NCBI RefSeq assembly: GCF_054482595.1
Contig: NZ_CM137008.1
Direction: 5' to 3' (one strand)
Length of the DNA stretch: 64,000 bases
The notes beneath the pieces were generated by a model. It was given only the letters and a program-made list of their open reading frames with translations. It was not told the DNA's origin and searched no databases. Each line of letters starts with the position of its first letter. The first letter of the stretch is position 1. A program made the translations under genes and the position numbers. Shown piece by piece: positions 3,578 to 14,035 of this stretch.

Positions 3578-4714
3578 ATGGATCTATTGATTGTTTTAAC
3601 TTACGTGGCGCTGGCGTGGGCGGTCTTTAAAATCTTCCGCATTCCGGTAAATCAGTGGACGCTGGCGACGGCGGCGCTGGGAGGCGTGTTTCTGGTGAGT
3701 GGTTTGATTTTGTTGATGAACTACAACCACCCTTACACTTTTACCGCGCAAAAGGCAGTGATAGCGATCCCTATCACGCCACAGGTGACGGGAATTGTTA
3801 CTGAAGTCACTGACAAGAATAATCAGCTTATTCAAAAGGGCGAGGTGCTTTTTAAGCTCGACCCGGTTCGTTACCAGGCGCGAGTTGACAGACTTCAGGC
3901 TGACCTGATGACGGCGACGCATAATATAAAAACGCTGCGCGCCCAGCTCACTGAAGCGCAGGCCAACACCACCCAGGTTTCAGCGGAGCGCGACCGTCTG
4001 TTTAAAAATTATCAACGTTACCTGAAAGGCAGCCAGGCGGCGGTGAATCCGTTCTCGGAACGTGACATCGACGATGCGCGGCAAAATTTCCTCGCGCAGG
4101 ATGCGTTAGTGAAAGGCTCGGTGGCGGAGCAGGCGCAGATCCAGAGTCAGCTCGACAGTATGGTCAACGGCGAGCAATCGCAGATTGTGAGCTTAAGAGC
4201 GCAACTTACTGAAGCAAAATATAATCTTGAGCAGACTGTCATTCGCGCACCAAGCAATGGCTACGTCACTCAGGTACTGATCCGCCCAGGCACATACGCA
4301 GCTGCCTTGCCGTTGCGTCCGGTGATGGTTTTCATCCCCGAGCAAAAACGGCAAATTGTCGCCCAATTTCGGCAAAACTCGCTGTTACGTCTGAAACCTG
4401 GCGATGATGCGGAAGTGGTGTTTAACGCGCTACCTGGGCAGGTGTTCCACGGCAAACTGACCAGTATTTTACCTGTCGTGCCAGGCGGTTCTTATCAGGC
4501 GCAGGGGGTATTGCAATCATTAACGGTCGTGCCCGGCACGGACGGTGTGCTGGGAACCATTGAACTGGACCCTAACGATGATATCGATGCCTTACCCGAC
4601 GGCATTTACGCCCAGGTGGCAGTTTACTCCGACCATTTCAGCCATGTTTCGGTGATGCGAAAAGTGCTGCTAAGAATGACCAGCTGGATGCATTATCTTT
4701 ATTTGGATCATTGA
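3578..4714 (+). CDS. yibH: HlyD-family membrane-fusion-like protein
   Basis: The ORF is 378 aa, with an N-terminal TM segment, a long coiled-coil-like middle and a shared C-terminus ...[31 protein letters not shown]. It is a clear paralogue of yiaV at 22120. Confidence 0.88.
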
Positions 4715-5173
4715 GGGGGAAGGGGGAGATTATGGAACTTTGCTCCCTGTAAGGACTAATTATTTTTGCATATTATTTCATCGGCTGTGATGATTTTTCG
4801 TTAATATCCATTATGTTAAGAAGTTCGGGATGAGTGTGAACTCATTGGATTTTTTATCCGTCTTGATCTGCCGAAGGATCAGACTATACATTGTCGAGAT
4901 CGCAATGATGATATGAGTTGTTCCTCCTGCGACGGCTCTAATCAAAAAAGAGCAGGAGTGCTTTTCCATCTATTGCGATGATGGCTTTATTATCTGAAGG
5001 ATGACAGTCACATTTAAAAAATATTTAATCTATAGATCACAATGTAGGGTCATGGAATATATGTATACAACTATTTTCTTCTTCACTTTTAATTATCGTG
5101 TTCATTATAAAACCAAGTTAAAAAAACTCCTGGAGAGTGACTTATTAATATATTTTTAAATAAAATTAAGTTA

Positions 5174-5695
5174 TTATTCATCGATGCATTTTATAGAATC
5201 ATCAATGGCCATAATAGTACTATTAACTCTCCACTTTATATTTTTATCATCACTACAAATATTAACTGAATTTATATCAATGATTTTTTTATTCTTATCT
5301 TTTGTTTTATTTACTGTTTCAATGCAATCAGCGGCAAGTTGGAGTGGATTTAGATTTTTCAGATATGGTCTTATGATCTTTCCCTTACTTAATAAATAGC
5401 ATGTATAGGATTCGGAAAGTCCAGCATCTATTTTGTACCTCATTATATTAGATAAGGATGTGAGAAATTCCTTGTTATCATTCGCAGCCATATATGCCAG
5501 TCCGAGTTCAGCCTCTGCGGCCTTACAGGCAAAATAGCTAAGTGAACACGCTTTTCGTCCCTCTTTAGTACTGGCTGATATTAGTGCCCATAATATTGCT
5601 TTGTCTGCCAAATCTAACTCTCTCTGAAATTGTCTTGCAGTAACTGCACTCGCAGAAATAGAGAAAAAAAATACAATTGTTAATAACTTTGCCAT
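5174..5695 (-). CDS. putative secreted (periplasmic) immunity protein for the downstream-most orphan Rhs toxin
   Basis: The 173-aa ORF starts 5 nt after the orphan toxin stop (5701-5703). Its N-terminus MAKLLTIVFFFSISASA/VTA looks like a Sec signal peptide with an AxA site. It is AT-rich like the adjacent toxin tail. I recognise no catalytic motif. Confidence 0.6.
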   Translation of the reverse strand: MAKLLTIVFFFSISASAVTARQFQRELDLADKAILWALISASTKEGRKACSLSYFACKAAEAELGLAYMAANDNKEFLTSLSNIMRYKIDAGLSESYTCYLLSKGKIIRPYLKNLNPLQLAADCIETVNKTKDKNKKIIDINSVNICSDDKNIKWRVNSTIMAIDDSIKCIDE

Positions 5696-5700
5696 ATTTT

Positions 5701-6594
5701 TTAGTCCGTAACTGTTAATGTGCTATCTGGCTCTGAAAATATTAACTCATTTAATTTTTGCATGTCATTAGATGAACCAGTTATACAACCCTCGGAACAG
5801 AATCGAGGTCCTAAAGACGGACCGAAAGCGTTTAAACAACTATGTGTTAAAAATCCATCACGATTATATGTTTCTGTATTTGCTGACGGTACTAAACGTA
5901 TACCATTAGGTTTTCTATTGGTTGCTCCAGGACCATTAACATTCCAGCTCCATACCCCTTGAGGTATTGGACCTCTATTTTGTAAGTGTGTACAACCAGG
6001 ATTATTTTTACATTGCATATTATTACCATTATTACCAGAGGCGACAGGAATAGTAAGCACATCATAAGAGTTATCATCATTTTGCGTATCTGAAACGCAT
6101 GAAAGCATACTTAAAGTTATGCTGTATAAACAGGTCGCTAATCCCAACGGGTCAATATCAGTTATCGGATTCAACGGATACTGATAAAAATTCCATCCCC
6201 CTTTCAGCCCAATCGGATCCTGAGTGATATATCGCCCCTGCAGCGGGTCATAATAGCGGTGGCGGTTGTAATACAGGCCGGACTCCTCATCATACTGCTG
6301 CCCCGGCAGGCGGATAAGCTGCTGCAGCTGATGCGGGTTCTCTTCATTCAGCAGGTTGCCCCACTCATCGTATTCTGCGCACCATTCTGTAGCACCTTCC
6401 GTGCTGATAAGCGCCAGCGGCAGGCCGCGATGGTCGCAGTGGTACAGGTGGATTTTTCGCGCCGGCGTGTACACCGGGTCCATCTGGTTTTGCATCTGCG
6501 CCACCGTCAGGCCGCACGATGCCAGCCAGCGGCGGCTTTCCTCACTCACCCGGTCAGCCAGGATTTCACTTTCCAGCCGGTCGAGCATCTGCAC
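5701..6594 (-). CDS. orphan Rhs C-terminal fragment: about 150 aa of Rhs core, DPLGL, then a 145-aa toxin tail with an L,D-transpeptidase-fold (Tlde1/DUF2778-like) signature
   Basis: Residues (M)[23 protein letters not shown]...[27 protein letters not shown] repeat the rhsA core 3' end. DPLGL lies at 6139-6153. The tail (5704-6138) contains GPIPQGVW and FLTHSC-x13-SEGCI. There is no ATG with a Shine-Dalgarno at the 5' end; the frame opens just after a TGA and the first starts are GTG 6594 and ATG 6588. It occupies the position of K-12 yibJ. Confidence 0.75.
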
Positions 6595-6620
6595 CGTGCC
6601 GGCGGGAATCCCCCACTGTG
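6154..6620 (-). repeat. third copy of the rhsA core 3' segment (about 0.45 kb)
   Basis: It is near-identical at nucleotide level to 10319-10790 and 8448-8915. For example, ggatcctgagtgatata.cgcccctgcagcgggtcataatagcggtggcggttgtaatacaggcc is present in all three. Confidence 0.9.
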
Positions 6621-6635
6621 CATAGGCAACTCACG

Positions 6636-7478
6636 CTATGAACGCTTCAGCTTATCAATAGCGGAAGTTATAATTTCATTGTCATCAAACTTGTACAACA
6701 TAGTATCTAAAACAGGAAGTAGCGTTTTATCACCTAATTCACCCGCAGCTTCAATGATATCATCATAAACAGTATTTTTTTTTAACTCATCGCATAAAAC
6801 AGATAAAACCCTTTTATCTTTTCTGTAGGAAAGTCAGATTATTGCTTCAATACGGACTTCCTCATTTTTATCCTGAAGCATCTCCACAAAATAATCCCTA
6901 ATATCACTATTATCATATTTATTGATATTTATTGCAAATGCGGCCCAGTTTCTGACATCTCCATTTGGATCTTTTAACAGATTAATCAATAGTGGAATTG
7001 TTGCTTTATCATTGATAACAGAAATAGCAAATGCTGTAGCACGTCTGACATTAGTCGATTTATCAAAAGCAGTAATTTGAGATTGTTCTACTATTTTAGG
7101 TGAATAATTTGGGTTTTTCTTGCATCGCTGAGCCGTTGACTCGATTGCCGTAGCTCGAACGCAAGCGCTCTTATCATTCAATGCCATATTGTTCAAAATA
7201 TTAAAAACATTATCTTCGCATTTTTTGCAAATTTTTATTTGCCCGAGTATAAATGCTCCGATATCTCTACGGATATAATTTTTATCAGAGCAGAACTCAA
7301 TTGCCAATCTAACAGCGTCTTGCCCACCTCTTAACTGTAATACTCTGGCAGATGAAATCCTTTTCAAGGAATTGTGATCATCAAGTAAGCGAAATAATTC
7401 ATCATCATTTAGTTTCTTACATTGATTATATAAACCATACTCTTTACTTGCCTTTCTTTTCTGGTATGTATTTGACAT
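6636..7478 (-). pseudogene. yibA: HEAT-repeat protein YibA (K-12 RhsA-associated immunity-type gene) interrupted by an in-frame TGA
   Basis: MSNTYQKRKASKEYGLYNQCKKLNDDELFRLLDDHNSLKR... matches my memory of K-12 YibA (280 aa). The frame reads ...GAA GCA ATA ATC TGA CTT TCC TAC AGA AAA GAT, with TGA at 6834-6836. It continues in the same frame to TAG at 6636-6638, encoding ...LSYRKDKRVLSVLCDELKKNTVYDDIIEAAGELGDKTLLPVLDTMLYKFDDNEIITSAIDKLKRS. The total is 281 codons, the K-12 length. Confidence 0.85.
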
Positions 7479-7498
7479 TGCAGGAACCTCCACAAAGG

Positions 7499-7582: not shown

Positions 7583-7966
7583 TTATTTTCCGTGGCCAAA
7601 ATTCAGAATTCTCCCATCATTTTTGCCTATTTCTATAATAAAAACCCCACCAGCAATTTGGTCTGAGTGAATGGTACCTTCAACAACCCAACTTGTTGTT
7701 AACTCAGTGATTTCGTATGGTTTTTCTTCTTCTGCGGCATCCTGTCCATAACGATTCTTAACATATATCTCAGCTAATTCCAATGCTATAGCTTTATTTT
7801 TAACCAAATTTCTAACGGTATATTTACCTTCACTTTCATACTTGCGCATTATTTTAATATTATTATTACACTGCGCCCATGTGTTGTATGTAAAAACAAA
7901 CAAAGATACAATGACACATTTCCTAAACAATATTTTTTTACATATTACCATGAACTCTGCAGACAT
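7583..7966 (-). CDS. YbbC/YhhH-type (NTF2-fold) Rhs immunity protein with probable signal peptide
   Basis: The 127-aa ORF contains ...[42 protein letters not shown]...[22 protein letters not shown]. This closely resembles K-12 YbbC/YhhH, the genes immediately 3' of rhsD and rhsB. The hydrophobic N-terminus is [24 protein letters not shown]. It overlaps the upstream toxin ORF by 29 nt, so the true start is uncertain (7966 or 7951). Confidence 0.75.
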
Positions 7967-9407
7967 TAGGTAATCCTTTTCCGTTTGTTATTTCCTTCCC
8001 GTGGTTATCTATTGCTTTAAAATTACCACTGGGCGTACCTAAATAAAATGACTTGATATTGTTATCTTTACTTTTAACTATTTTCTCATCTTTACCTGAA
8101 AATATTTCGTCCCAATATTCTCCATGACTATCTGCACCATGAGTATGATAAGCTGATACTTTCTCAGTACCATTAGGGCAAGGGCTATTGAATGGATATG
8201 ATCCTTTTCTTTCTCCTCGGTTAGGTGCTGTTGAGAAATATCTGCCACTATTATCCTTACATATTAAACCAGCGAACTCTTTATCTTCGCAAATAGATTG
8301 GCTATTTATTTTATTTAAGGCGTCATATGCGGTGCTATCTATAGAATCAAATTTATCTGGACCTATCATAGCGGATAGTGTGCCGCAAAGACCATTAGTA
8401 CATGCCCCCGATTTTGCATCCTCCCACATAGATAAACCCAGGGGGTCGATGTCTGATATCGGATTCAATTGATATCCATACAGGTTCCATCCCCCCTTCA
8501 GCCCAATCGGATCCTGAGTGATATACCTCCCCTGCAGCGGGTCATAATAGCGGTGGCGGTTGTAATACAGGCCGGACTCCTCATCATACTGCTGACCCGG
8601 CAGGCGGATGAGCTGCTGCAGCTGGTGCGGGTTCTCTTCATTCAGCAGGTTGCCCCATTCATCGTATTCTGCGCACCATTCTGTAGCCCCTTCCGTGCTG
8701 ATAAGCGCCAGCGGCAGGCCGCGATGGTCGCAGTGGTACAGGTGGATTTTTCGCGCCGGCGTGTACACCGGGTCCATCTGGTTTTGCATCTGCTCCACCG
8801 TCAGGCCGCACGATGCCAGCCAGCGGCGGCTTTCCTCACTCACCCGGTCAGCCAGGATTTCACTTTCCAGCCGGTCGAGCATCTGCACCAGCACCGGCGG
8901 GAACACCACACTGCCACCGTCTTCGCCGCCGGACTGCTGAAGGGCATCCGCCAGGCTGCGGCGCTGCGTTTTCGCCAGCTCACCGGTGGCAGTTTCGACC
9001 CTGATGAGTGGCGTGAAGCTCCCCGGCTGATAAATCGTCTGGATGCGGCTCCTGTCGTTCTGTATCGTGGTCAGCCGGTCGCCGTCCCAGCCGTACCAGG
9101 TCACTTGCGGTTTCCGTGACAGCGACATCCAGCCCGTCAGGTCCCGTTCACGCCGCCACACCCGTTTTGCCACCCTGCGGCCCAGCGGGTCGTAAAGATA
9201 GCGACTTTCGACCAGCGGCTCTGCATATTGTGTCCGCGTGTAGTGCACCAGCCGGTGCTGACTGTCGTAATGGTACCGGTGGGTGCGCTCATCATCCGTG
9301 CGGATAACCCCTTCCGGGATGAGGTCGGTTTTCTCCGTCAGCCTGCCGTGACGGTCATACCGGTAAAGATAGTGCGCGTCACGGGCGATACGGTTATCCG
9401 GCCACAT
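7938..9407 (-). CDS. orphan Rhs C-terminal fragment: about 325 aa of Rhs core, DPLGL, then a 164-aa RhsD/RhsB-type tail (DUF4329-like)
   Basis: [29 protein letters not shown]... duplicates the rhsA core. DPLGL lies at 8433-8447. The tail [17 protein letters not shown]...[15 protein letters not shown]...[23 protein letters not shown] resembles the K-12 RhsD C-terminus as I recall it. The first ATG is an internal core Met with no Shine-Dalgarno, so the fragment is probably silent unless recombined. Confidence 0.8.
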
Positions 9408-9524: not shown

Positions 9525-9851
9525 TTATTTGTTTATAATGCGCTTACTTAATACAAACCATTGAATATACCCTCCTGACAGAAAATAAAGCCATATTATT
9601 ATCGCCATAATATACTTACTATCAATCCTTACGCCAATAATGTCTGATACAGTCCCTATAAATATTAGAGCAATAAAGAATACTATGCCTGTTGGAAAAC
9701 ATATTACCATCATTCCATAAGACATGAGACTAATTAACTCGCTCACATCACGAGTGGAGTCTAATAGTGAAAGTCTATGCATGGAAAAGAATAGTATTAA
9801 AAGCGATAAAGCCAGCCATATAGCTCTGAATAAAAAAATAATATATTTCAT
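9525..9851 (-). CDS. small polytopic membrane protein, presumed cognate immunity (RhsI) for the rhsA C-terminal toxin
   Basis: The 108-aa ORF has three hydrophobic segments (IIFLFRAIWLALSLLILFF, MSYGMMVICFPTGIVFFIALIFIG, IMAIIIWLYFLSGGYIQWFVL). Its ATG (9849-9851) shares one nt with the rhsA TAA (9851-9853), reading TAATG. It is AT-rich. Confidence 0.7.
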   Translation of the reverse strand: MKYIIFLFRAIWLALSLLILFFSMHRLSLLDSTRDVSELISLMSYGMMVICFPTGIVFFIALIFIGTVSDIIGVRIDSKYIMAIIIWLYFLSGGYIQWFVLSKRIINK

Positions 9852-12800
9852 TACATCACTCCGGTGAATACAAATCTAATAAAACGTCCAATGTTATTTC
9901 CGGAGCACTTCATCTTACATGTTTCTAAAGAATCATTAGACCAGTCTTGGCAGTTTTTAAATAGCCCTAAATTTATAGGTGTGAATATATCAGGCAATAC
10001 AGAATAACGCGGCCTTACCTCTTTAAACTTCCCTTTTAAACAGTTCTCCACACAACTATTATCGGTTTCAACGAGGTCACAACGGCCAGCAGCTTCTTTT
10101 GTATCATTACTTGCTTTACCTGGCCCCCATAGACCATCTCCTTTTGATTCTCCCCGTTGGTCTTGGCCACCACAAGTATAGTCCCCTTTACCATCTGGGA
10201 CACAAAGATATTGATGATAGAACGGATTCCCCCATATATCTGGACCGCTTCTTTCACCAGTTCCGCCCATTGAATGCAGTGGCTTAATGCATTTTAGTGT
10301 TTCTAATCCTAATGGATCTATATTTGAGATCGGATTCAACGGATACTGATAAAAATTCCATCCCCCCTTCAGCCCAATCGGATCCTGAGTGATATACCGC
10401 CCCTGCAGCGGGTCATAATAGCGGTGGCGGTTGTAATACAGGCCGGACTCCTCATCATACTGCTGCCCCGGCAGCCGGATAAGCTGCTGCAGCTGATGCG
10501 GGTTCTCTTCATTCAGCAGGTTGCCCCATTCATCATATTCTGCGCACCACGCTGTTGCCCCTTCCGTGCTGATGAGCGCCAGCGGCAGGCCGCGATGGTC
10601 GCAGTGGTACAGGTGGATTTTTCGCGCCGGCGTGTACACCGGGTCCATCTGGTTTTGCATCTGCTCCACGGTCAGGCCGCACGATGCCAGCCAGCGGCGG
10701 CTTTCCTCACTCACCCGGTCAGCCAGGATTTCACTTTCCAGCCGGTCGAGCATCTGCACCAGCACCGGCGGGAACACCACACTGCCACCGTCTTCGCCGC
10801 CGGACTGCTGAAGCGCATCCGCCAGGCTGCGGCGCTGCGTTCTGGCCAGTTCACCGGTGGCAGTTTCAACTCTGATGAGTGGTGTGAAGCTCCCCGGCTG
10901 ATAAATCGTCTGGATGCGGCTCCTGTCGTTCTGTATCGTGGTCAGCCGGTCGCCGTCCCAGCCGTACCAGGTCACTTGCGGTTTCCGTGACAGCGACATC
11001 CAGCCCGTCAGGTCCCGTTCACGTCGCCATACCCGTTTTGCCACCCTGCGGCCCAGCGGGTCGTAAAGATAGCGACTTTCGACCAGCGGCTCTGCATATT
11101 GTGTCCGCGTGTAGTGCACCAGCCGGTGCTGACTGTCGTAATGGTACCGGTGGGTGCGCTCATCATCCGTACGGATACCCCCTTCCGGGATGAGGTCGGT
11201 TTTCTCCGTCAGCCTGCCGTAACGGTCATACCGGTAAAGATAGTGCGCGTCACGGGCGATACGGTTATCCGGCCACATGCTGAGGGTGCTGTCCGGGTGC
11301 AGCTCCGGGTCGGGCAGGCGGTTGCCCGCCGGGTCCGTGGCATACGGGATGCGGATATCCAGATTCGCTGCGGTGGTGTGAACGCCGGTCAGCCTGCCGG
11401 TGGTGCTGTAGCTGTAACTCCGGGTCTGGCGCGGGCTGCTGATGCGGATGAGTTCGCCGTTGTCGTTCCAGGTGTAATCGCGGTCATACTGCAGGCTGTT
11501 CAGGTGCTGACGCTGTAACTGCCCGGCAGGGGTGTAAGCGGTGGTGAGTTCATAACGACCGAAGCTGCGCAGCGTTTCCCGGTGCAGGCGGTCGCGGGTG
11601 AAATCCACCAGCGGTGTGTCGCCGAGCTTCATGCCTGCCAGCCAGCCGCTGCCGTAGGTCAGCCATTCCACGGCGGGCAGGCTGTCCGGTATACAGCGGT
11701 TCGCCAGTCCCTGCGCGTTGTACGCATGTCTGGTCTCATGCTGCCAGAGCAGTGCTTCCGTCTGCGGGTGATGCACCGTCTGGCGCTCACCGGTCAGGCG
11801 GCCTTTCTCATCATACCTGTAATGCACCGCTACCCGGTGCCCTTCGCTGATATGGCTGATGTCTGTCAGCCAGCCACGTTCGTCATACCGCCACCGCTCT
11901 GCGGTTTCACCCTTCACGGTGCGGTGCGTGAGGCGGTCTGCTTCGTCATAGTGCCAGTGGGTGACCAGACCCTCATCCTCGCTGCGGATAAGTTTGCCGG
12001 TCAGGTCGTGGTGATAACGCTGTGTGCGGCCGTCAAAGCCGGTTTCCTGTATCAGCCGGTCAAGTACATCGTAACGGAAGGTGGTGTGGCTGCCGTTTTC
12101 ACTGGTCAGGCGGATGACCCGTCCGGCAGCATCGTATTCCATACTGCGCGTCAGCCCGCCCTGCGTGGTACGGACGGCCTTTCCCCACGCATCGTACTGT
12201 GTCCCGTTTCTGCTGCCGTCCGGGGCAATGACGGCGGTCAGGTCACCGGCGATGTTGTATTCATACCGCGTTTCATGGCCCTGCGTGTCTTTCACGGCAA
12301 TTAACTGTCCACGGCTGTCGTATGCGCGGTACTGGCTCAGCCCTTCCTCGCGGTGCACCGCCGTCATCTGCCCGAAGCGGTCATGGTCATAACGGGTCTG
12401 GTAGCCGGAACAGTCGGTGAAGCTCAGCAACTGGCCGTAACGGCTCCACGTCATGGTTTTCCGGCTGCCGGTGGCATCGTCCGTTGCGCAGGGGAGGTCA
12501 CTGTGTGGATTATCATAACGGTAGCGGGTGATATCGCCGTCAGGGGCGGTTTCCTGAATCAGACGGCCGGATTCATCATATTCCCGGCGCAATTCCAGCC
12601 CGTCAGGCCCGGTGGCTGACGTTAACTGGTTGTGGTGGTTATAGTAAAACGCCGATGCCCTGCCATCCGGCGTGGTTATGCGCGTGATGAGGCCCGTCAC
12701 CACATCCGGGCTGTACTCTGTTGTCCTGCCTGCGGCATCCGTCTGTGCCCTGAGCCTGCCCACGGCGTCAAACTGACTCTGCGTGACGCTGCCGTCCGCG

Positions 12801-14035
12801 TGTTCCTTTTTCACCACCCGCTTCAGCCCGGCTTCGCCCTGCGTGTGCAGCACTTCACGGCGGTCCAGGCTGTCGGTGATGGTGATGCGGTCTTTCTCAT
12901 ACTGATACGTGTAGCTTAAGCCTGCCGGGTTTAGCTGTTCTGTCACCCGCCCGTCGCTGTCGTAACGGTAACGGATTTCCGGCCGGCCCGTGTGACGGTG
13001 CGCCACCATCCGGCCCCGGTATTTATCATCGTAAGTAAAGCTGCGCACCTGTGTATTGCTGCGGTCATACACTGCCGCCAGTTCGCCGCGCGGCGTCCAG
13101 CCATAGCGCACCAGCGGCGCGGCAGGTAAATTCTCCGGGTATTCCGGGTCGTGCGTCAGCCACACGGCAGACAGACGGATGCCGTTGTCCCGGCCATATT
13201 CGGTGTAACCCGGCAGGGTATCAGGAAAAGCGGACGGTTCCGTCCCGCCGGAAATGGCCTGCTGCCGGGCTTCTTCTGCCTGCTGCGCCTGCGTGGTCAG
13301 TACCAGCCGGAAGTGACGCCCGGCACCATCCGTCACGCCGGTGATTTCGCCGCTGAATTCACCGGCGGCTTCGCGGTGGAACGTCTGTGTGCGCCCGAAG
13401 CGGTCCACCAGCCCGGTCAGTACCCGGTACGGCGGCAGCGGCGCAGGCAGCACCTCATCCGCTTCCGGCACCCGCTCACACCACCACCACGGCCCCTGCG
13501 GACTGTTTGTCGCCAGATAACGATGCGGACTTAAGCGGAGTTCTTCCGGCAGCGCCTGCCAGAGTGCGGCCAGCCGGTGACCTTCATCCAGTTTCGCCAC
13601 GCCGCCGCGCACCAGCCACAGTGACTCGCTGCGGCTGTAACCGTCCTCACCGGGAAACAGGTGCTCAAAATACAGGCTTCTGCCGCCGTTATCACTGAGT
13701 ATCAGTGTGTTATCGCGCAGCTGTAAGCGGATATCCGCAGGCATTTTCCAGCCGGGGCCGAGGCTCCCCACCGGCGCGGGCGTTTTTGTCCGGTAACTGC
13801 TGTAGGTGCGGGAGAGGATGAACGGCAGCGGGGCGGGCAGGGCGATGTCGGTTTCACCGGGAAGGACCTTTGCACCGAGCAGGGGATTGACCGGATGGCC
13901 GGACGTCACTCCGCCGGGGCACCCCGAACAGGCCACACCGGTTGGGGCACCGATGCGCACCCCGGCTGAACCCTGAACAATGCTACCGCCATACTGCGTC
14001 ATGTCGCCCTGACGCGCCGCCGGTTTTCCGCTCAT
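9851..14035 (-). CDS. rhsA: Rhs family polymorphic toxin (PAAR-like N-terminus, YD-repeat shell, DPLGL, variable 150-aa Cys-rich C-terminal domain)
   Basis: The ORF is 1394 aa. The N-terminus is [29 protein letters not shown] (literal PAAR). Many YD-type repeats (xYxYDxxGRL) follow, then the core end ...[40 protein letters not shown] (DPLGL at 10304-10318) and the tail at 9854-10303. It is called rhsA from its position next to yibF and yibA, as in K-12. Confidence 0.93.
10319..11367 (-). repeat. rhsA core 3' segment, the master copy of the three direct repeats
   Basis: See 8448-9497 and 6154-6620. All three copies are in the same (minus-strand) orientation. Confidence 0.9.

Follow-up and report, generated by a model that had tools for sequence, protein, structure and literature searches.

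Results

An orphan Rhs gene followed by an immunity gene

We analyzed a 64,000-nucleotide (nt) stretch of Escherichia coli DNA (assembly GCF_054482595.1, contig NZ_CM137008.1), hereafter the window, in whose coordinates all features are given. At the E. coli rhsA locus, which lies between yibF and yibH, the window carries a cassette that consists of an orphan Rhs gene with a Tlde1-family toxin tail and an Imm57 immunity gene. Both genes are on the minus strand, as is the main rhs gene of the locus; a preliminary description of the cassette had not stated the strand. The orphan open reading frame (ORF; 5701..6594, minus) encodes 297 amino acids (aa) from a GTG start and ends with a TAA stop codon at 5701-5703. 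Its first part is an Rhs core fragment of 457 nt (6139..6595, minus) that encodes the last 152 residues of the core and matches the Pfam family RHS (PF03527). Translation showed that the core ends with DPLGL (6139..6153, minus), and the matches to the profiles TIGR03696 (Rhs_assc_core) and NF041261 (RHS_core) both stop at residue 152, NF041261 being covered over its last 151 positions. The DPxGL motif is the boundary at which Rhs tails get cleaved off. The preliminary description had let the cassette extend to 6620. The cassette is real, but comparison of the DNA with other rhs copies showed that Rhs-core homology stops abruptly at 6595, and the ORF reaches 6594.

The core fragment is one of three direct-repeat copies, the other two being found from 8433 and from 10304 onward. 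Compared with the main rhs gene (10304-10760), it shows 95.6% identity and unbroken identical stretches of up to 90 nt; compared with the core of a second orphan, which carries a DUF4329 tail, it shows 94.7% identity. Across both core comparisons the longest identical runs are 90-105 nt. The orphan lacks the Rhs (YD) shell, the N-terminal region and any evident start signal, and the copy in the window is not on an Rhs scaffold. A core 3' end with DPxGL, a variable tail, an adjoining immunity gene and the lack of an N-terminal region and shell are the features by which we classify it as an orphan Rhs module. A promoter and terminator scan of 4700-7000 returned 11 promoter sites, with 8.0 +/- 2.8 expected, and one candidate at 5768-5739 (minus); because these counts are at chance level, we make no claim on independent expression of Imm57.

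The tail is a Tlde1-family domain

The tail that follows DPLGL (5704..6138, minus) is 145 aa long and contains GPIPQGVW, and translation bore out the preliminary description on both points. It matches PF10908 (Tlde1_dom, formerly DUF2778) over positions 10-106 of the 120 in the profile, with 33.8 bits (E 5e-8) for the tail and 31.1 bits for the whole ORF against a gathering cut-off of 30.1, and matched no other Pfam family. Of the two profiles to which a relationship had been proposed, DUF2778 and YkuD, the former was thus recovered and the latter (PF03734) was not. A tail profile run exhaustively with HMMER recovered 394 cluster representatives (E <= 1e-3) among 1.84 billion; in these the domain was C-terminal. 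When ten distant standalone relatives were scanned, Tlde1_dom was their sole match. Fold searches placed the tail in the L,D-transpeptidase (YkuD-like) fold, and it was fold comparison only that linked it to solved structures. An alignment of the tail profile with E. coli LdtB by hhalign had a probability of 0.8% and was meaningless, so that it could not be used for mapping catalytic residues.

The preliminary description had pointed to a His followed 15 residues later by S-x-G-C-I. We found this arrangement in the predicted active-site stretch (5785..5862, minus), which holds R93 (5860-5862), H99 (5842-5844) and S115-E116-G117-C118 (5785-5796); 15 residues separate H99 from S115, and C118 lies 19 positions after H99. 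A broad alignment (A5) that includes distant Tlde1_dom proteins showed G35, N45, G56, P59, G61, R93, H99, S115, G117 and C118 to be invariant. The toxin frame in the window has no disruption, and none of the family-invariant residues is lost from it. Flanked by C101 and C114, an insertion of about 7-8 residues (AFGPSLGPR) stands between His and Cys. The alignment of the close toxin subfamily showed seven invariant Cys, a number consistent with three possible disulfides plus the thiol of a catalytic C118. Taken together, these data assign the tail to the Tlde1 family and to the L,D-transpeptidase fold, with the predicted active-site Arg, His and Ser-x-Gly-Cys retained.

The downstream gene encodes Imm57 with a predicted signal peptide

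The gene that follows the tail (5174..5695, minus) encodes 173 aa beginning MAKLLTIVFFFSISASAV, and it matches Pfam PF15596 (Imm57) with 160.4 bits (E 1.3e-47, cut-off 25). Its ORF is separated from the toxin stop codon by 5 nt (5696-5700). A Sec signal peptide is predicted at its N-terminus (5645..5695, minus; MAKLLTIVFFFSISASA / V), whose n-region contains a Lys, whose core is hydrophobic and whose cleavage site is preceded by A-S-A; hydropathy on the Kyte-Doolittle scale averages 2.77 over 10 residues, and the site reads ASA|V. The 173-aa ORF 5 nt away with a plausible Sec signal was therefore present as the preliminary description had it. All of our signal-peptide calls come from a heuristic on the Lys, hydropathy and cleavage-site features.

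We retrieved 34 genomic loci coding for tail relatives and examined the downstream gene in 22 of them. The gene directly downstream was Imm57 in 17 of the 22 loci, and 21 of the 22 neighbors had a signal-peptide-like N-terminus, one or two of them resembling lipoproteins. In a wider set of Imm57 proteins the heuristic was passed by 24 of 30, and exactly six Cys were counted in the mature part of 25 of 30. A structure model of Imm57, for which the alignment was built from database matches, was all-alpha with a predicted local distance difference test (pLDDT) score of 88 and resembled generic helical repeats only. The hidden Markov model (HMM) match, the mostly alpha model and the position next to a Tox-LD-peptidase toxin agree in assigning the protein to Imm57, which, judged by its Pfam family, is unrelated to Tldi1 (DUF2195).

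The signal-peptide-like N-terminus and the six Cys point to a periplasmic location of Imm57. A periplasmic immunity protein had been anticipated, and the AxA-type signal peptide, with an N-terminus that is conserved across homologous loci, agrees with this. Since an exported, Cys-rich antidote adjoins a Cys-rich toxin of the L,D-peptidase fold, the toxin itself would also be expected to act in the periplasm. Neither the toxin nor the immunity protein matched any of the PADLOC defense models.

The same tail ends full-length Rhs proteins

A first homologue search had returned short and orphan proteins only, suggesting that the domain exists only as orphans; this was overturned by the HMMER search and the genome loci. 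The tail was found at the end of Rhs ORFs that are 1500-1950 aa long in Paraburkholderia, Stenotrophomonas, Solilutibacter, Pseudoxanthomonas, Luteimonas and a Proteobacteria metagenome-assembled genome, and a Pfam scan of the long carriers found RHS repeats and DUF6531. In E. coli, strain Ec73552 has at the yibF-yibH locus a 1392-aa Rhs and no orphans; the tail of this Rhs is identical to that of the window in 138 of 145 residues, and an intact 173-aa Imm57, identical in 153 of 173, lies 4 nt downstream. Strain 2013C-4282 likewise has a full-length Rhs (1389 aa) and no orphans at this locus, and the 1392-aa Rhs proteins of PE164 and F2_81 end with a tail identical to that of the window in all 145 residues.

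The family is also found at the C-terminus of secreted proteins other than Rhs that have PKD, Big_7, dockerin or CBM96 domains. Given both Rhs and non-Rhs carriers, the domain uses polymorphic-toxin carriers of more than one kind. Two contigs of Amycolatopsis orientalis (258 and 330 nt) encode the last 63 residues of the tail with 89% identity to the E. coli protein; these are most likely E. coli contamination and not real actinobacterial genes.

Neighboring genes of the rhsA locus

On the minus strand the order of genes is the main rhs, a small ORF, the DUF4329 orphan module, a yibA-like HEAT gene and the Tlde1/Imm57 cassette, after which yibH and yibI follow on the opposite strand. The main full-length rhs (9851..14035, minus) encodes 1394 aa, scores 2627 bits with NF041261 RHS_core and contains, by Pfam, DUF6531 and 11 RHS repeats. 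Its N-terminus (13997-14035) holds a literal PAAR motif, and Pfam reports no PAAR domain on it. The small ORF downstream (9525-9851, minus; 108 aa) is named ybfB in RefSeq. Pfam and NCBIfam searches gave no match for this 108-aa ORF or for the tail of the main Rhs, which extends about 150 aa beyond the core (region 9525-10303). The second orphan module (7583..9407, minus) is composed of an Rhs fragment with a DUF4329 tail (7938-9407; E 7e-39 by Pfam) and an NTF2-fold immunity gene (7583-7966; Imm-NTF2-2, E 2.5e-26).

Directly upstream of the Tlde1 orphan lies a yibA-like HEAT-repeat gene with an internal stop (6636..7478, minus; ORF 6834-7493). This gene was placed by shifting the RefSeq annotation of strain XH990, which is 100% identical to the window over the cassette, to window coordinates, and it matches NCBIfam PRK09687 (E 7e-103) and Pfam HEAT. 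It stands alone between the two orphan modules with no toxin tail adjoining. In K-12, rhsA is followed directly by yibA. The yibA-like gene looks like a stranded immunity-type gene, the remnant of a lost module.

The guanine-plus-cytosine (GC) content is 0.57-0.60 in the Rhs cores of the locus and 0.31-0.41 in its tails and immunity genes; in the Tlde1 cassette it is 0.57 in the core and 0.37 in the tail. Such a step is the usual discontinuity between Rhs core and tip. Within 9 kb in XH990, the region covered, no vgrG, hcp, PAAR or chaperone gene is annotated.

Distribution, decay and annotation of the cassette

Of 5426 complete E. coli genomes, 3696 contained the cassette or its remnants, for the most part as an allele about 94% identical, and the intact allele of the window at >=99% identity was found in about 32-35 genomes. 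In K-12 and others, two deletions disrupt the toxin half: one of 9 nt, which takes away some of the invariant GNNG, and one of 1 nt in the tail. The K-12 Imm57 carries two homopolymer frameshifts. One of these homopolymers is a T8 run in the FFF codons of the Imm57 signal peptide (5664..5671, minus), which DNA alignments and the 'frameshifted' flags of RefSeq brought to light. The run is T7, and thus frameshifted, in K-12 RV308, ECDA1023, PE164, PI24 and F2_81, which represent two allelic backgrounds; Imm57 is annotated as frameshifted in E105 as well. The other is an A7 run near the 3' end of Imm57 (5284-5290), which is A8 in K-12. The T7 state could be decay, slippage or an assembly error.

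The exact 297-aa orphan is deposited (for example, APY02161.1) and is present on 145 contigs, and its cluster includes proteins that go by the names 'DUF2778 domain-containing protein' and 'tlde1 domain-containing protein'. RefSeq likewise annotates the 94%-identical tail of JNE21-003 as 'tlde1 domain-containing protein'. The exact Imm57 of the window is present on 440 contigs, another intact 173-aa allele has 542 cluster members, and the Imm57 of Shigella sonnei and S. boydii is 98% identical to that of the window. In XH990 the NCBI Prokaryotic Genome Annotation Pipeline (PGAP) marks only the core fragment, as a pseudogene, and leaves the intact 145-aa tail (5704-6138 in the window) without any feature.

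Discussion

We conclude, with a probability of about 0.8, that the cassette belongs to the Rhs polymorphic toxin system at the E. coli rhsA locus as an orphan toxin/immunity pair that is intact but unarmed. The orphan lacks a Rhs shell, an N-terminal region for export and an evident start signal, so that its toxin is most likely silent where it stands. On a full-length Rhs the tail would be cut off after DPLGL and delivered to the periplasm of a neighboring cell, where it may fold with disulfide bonds, three possible pairs being available besides the catalytic C118. It would then attack the stem peptides of peptidoglycan by L,D-carboxypeptidase or D-amino-acid exchange chemistry, as Salmonella Tlde1a does, and such an attack would block cross-linking and lead to lysis. 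Imm57, exported by Sec and probably disulfide-bonded through its six conserved Cys, would bind and block the toxin in the periplasm. Because the core is 95.6% identical to the main rhs, recombination could arm the orphan: exchange between the 457-nt core fragment and the main rhs 4 kb upstream would delete the intervening modules and yield the arrangement of the locus that PE164 and Ec73552 have. In the unarmed state, Imm57 may still protect the cell against relatives that carry an armed Rhs-Tlde1.

Several observations weigh against this interpretation. The PF10908 score is only 1-4 bits over the cut-off, the Pfam scan did not match the tail to YkuD PF03734 even at E <= 1, and PDB sequence searches with the tail alone and with the family profile found no relative. 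The equivalence of residues between the tail and Tlde1a is based on spacing and the family alignment, not on a direct alignment, and the loop between His and Cys (residues 104-113) was modeled with pLDDT below 50. Most copies of the cassette in E. coli are decayed. With no vgrG, hcp or chaperone gene nearby and no PAAR domain by Pfam, the delivery route is an assumption. Finally, PE164, E105 and F2_81 combine a frameshifted Imm57 with a full-length Rhs gene that carries a window-type tail. In E105 this Rhs has an internal stop; those of PE164 and F2_81 are intact. These three strains, two from China and one from Australia, were sequenced independently. An armed Rhs paired with a broken Imm57 is awkward if the toxin is actively used.

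We also considered whether the cassette is an immunity-only relic of C-terminal displacement, in which the toxin half is never deployed and only Imm57 functions, against strains with an armed Rhs-Tlde1. The decay of the toxin half in K-12 and other strains, among the 3696 of 5426 genomes with the cassette or remnants, is in line with this proposal, as are the many intact Imm57 alleles (440 contigs; 542 cluster members), the missing upstream shell and start signal, and a promoter scan at chance level. Against it stand the intact toxin frame of the window with all family-invariant residues, a tail protein identical to those of the full-length Rhs in PE164 and F2_81 and a core fragment with long runs identical to the main rhs. 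We regard this proposal as possible but would not favor it; it is compatible with an intact, unarmed cassette, since the two differ only in whether recombination ever happens.

The target of the toxin is a second matter. A domain of the L,D-transpeptidase fold could act on something other than the D-Ala of stem peptides, either on the link between Lpp and peptidoglycan, as DpaA does, or as an endopeptidase. DpaA (8ikr) and the L,D-carboxypeptidases Bd1075, Pgp2 and Csd6 ranked at or above Tlde1a in the fold searches, the tail has an insertion of its own between His and Cys and an S-E-G-C motif in place of S-H-G-C, and the capping-subdomain insert has been linked to exchange activity in Tlde1a only (PMC9638812). 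Ranks within one fold say little on substrate, however, and R93 and G117, the equivalents of R115 and G130 in the D-amino-acid pocket of Tlde1a that are conserved across subfamilies (PMC9638812), are invariant in the tail family. We therefore think another target unlikely. Two further ideas strike us as highly doubtful. The Cys-flanked insertion might make the substrate specificity unlike that of Tlde1a. Separately, the T8/T7 tract might be a slippage-prone switch and not simple decay, so that Imm57 immunity would be phase-variable or would be kept low through frameshifting; the T7 state recurs on two allelic backgrounds and in three independent assemblies whose Rhs gene carries the tail, and with a -1 slip on the U7 run the exact sequence VFFFSISASA would be regained.

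Lastly, the His...S-x-G-C pattern might resemble an active site by chance in an unrelated toxin that acts in the cytoplasm. Most characterized Rhs tails act in the cytoplasm, and the Pfam score near the cut-off, the lack of a PDB sequence match and the uninformative hhalign comparison with LdtB would all suit such a toxin. The fold searches, the Pfam scan of distant relatives and the broad alignment effectively refute it, and we give it next to no weight. An intact but unarmed Tlde1/Imm57 cassette accounts best for what we found at the locus.

The preliminary description held that an Rhs-borne Tlde1 domain in E. coli would be worth documenting. This judgment is out of date because such proteins are already published and annotated. 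Zhang, de Souza, Anantharaman, Iyer and Aravind described in 2012 the Tox-LD-peptidase domain, with conserved H, S and C residues and the fold of 1ZAT, its association with RHS repeats and T6SS (type VI secretion system) trafficking, and its Imm16 or Imm57 immunity proteins; Imm57 was described as predominantly alpha, as having D, SE and C conserved, and as occurring in beta- and gamma-proteobacteria (PMC3482391). Nothing of substance distinguishes our cassette from that description, and the window holds one instance of it. A 2020 preprint of Sibinelli-Sousa et al. reported DUF2778 at the C-terminus of Rhs, for example in Shigella sonnei WP_052983304.1, counted Rhs-DUF2778 fusions in 387 of 3510 genomes of the Tae7 family (later Tlde1c) and cited the link to Imm57 (bioRxiv 10.1101/2020.02.18.954545). 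Compared by published description, those fusions have the same architecture and likewise occur in Escherichia/Shigella, whereas the window copy is an orphan fragment and not a full-length fusion. In our literature searches, neither Rhs-borne Tlde1 nor Imm57 turned up in experimental work; these two bioinformatic descriptions were all that we found. Tox-LD-peptidase/Tlde1 with Imm57 on Rhs is therefore a known combination, which was on record by 2012 and again in 2020, and the exact proteins are deposited.

What the window holds is an ordinary representative of a class that is known and catalogued, and its value as a discovery is small. What E. coli offers at this one locus is a natural series: armed in Ec73552, armed with a frameshifted immunity gene in PE164 and F2_81, intact as an orphan in the window and decayed in K-12. 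This series is suited to asking how an Rhs cage carries a disulfide-rich toxin that would act in the periplasm. The locus also exposes a gap in annotation, as the intact tail in XH990 is passed over by PGAP.

Among the closest known systems is Tlde1a (Tae5-STM, STM14_0336), an effector of the SPI-6 (Salmonella pathogenicity island 6) T6SS of Salmonella Typhimurium whose structure is known (7UMA) and whose immunity protein is Tldi1 (DUF2195). The H121A and C131A mutations abolish its toxicity in the periplasm (bioRxiv 10.1101/2020.02.18.954545; PMC9638812), and R115 and G130 are reported to be conserved across subfamilies (PMC9638812). The R-x5-H and G-C arrangement of the tail mirrors R115/H121/G130/C131 (numbering of PMC9638812), an equivalence that we infer from spacing. 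The immunity protein in the window is Imm57 and not DUF2195, and the spacing between His and Cys is 19 instead of the 10 of Tlde1a because of the AFGPSLGPR insertion. These two differences place the tail in the same superfamily but not in the Tlde1a subfamily.

As a module, the cassette resembles the orphan rhs module of Salmonella Typhimurium LT2, which is silent until it recombines with the main rhs, after which the evolved cells kill their ancestors (Koskiniemi et al. 2014, PMC3967940). Both are composed of a core fragment, a tail and an immunity gene downstream of the main rhs, and both lack signals for initiation and export. The toxin domains differ, and recombination was seen in LT2, whereas the armed state at the E. 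coli locus is known only from other strains. A further counterpart is found among the rhsA remnants of K-12, downstream of yibG and just upstream of yibH at the distal end of the locus, where the same cassette is present with about 94% DNA identity; the K-12 copy is dead, whereas the copy in the window is intact in both genes.

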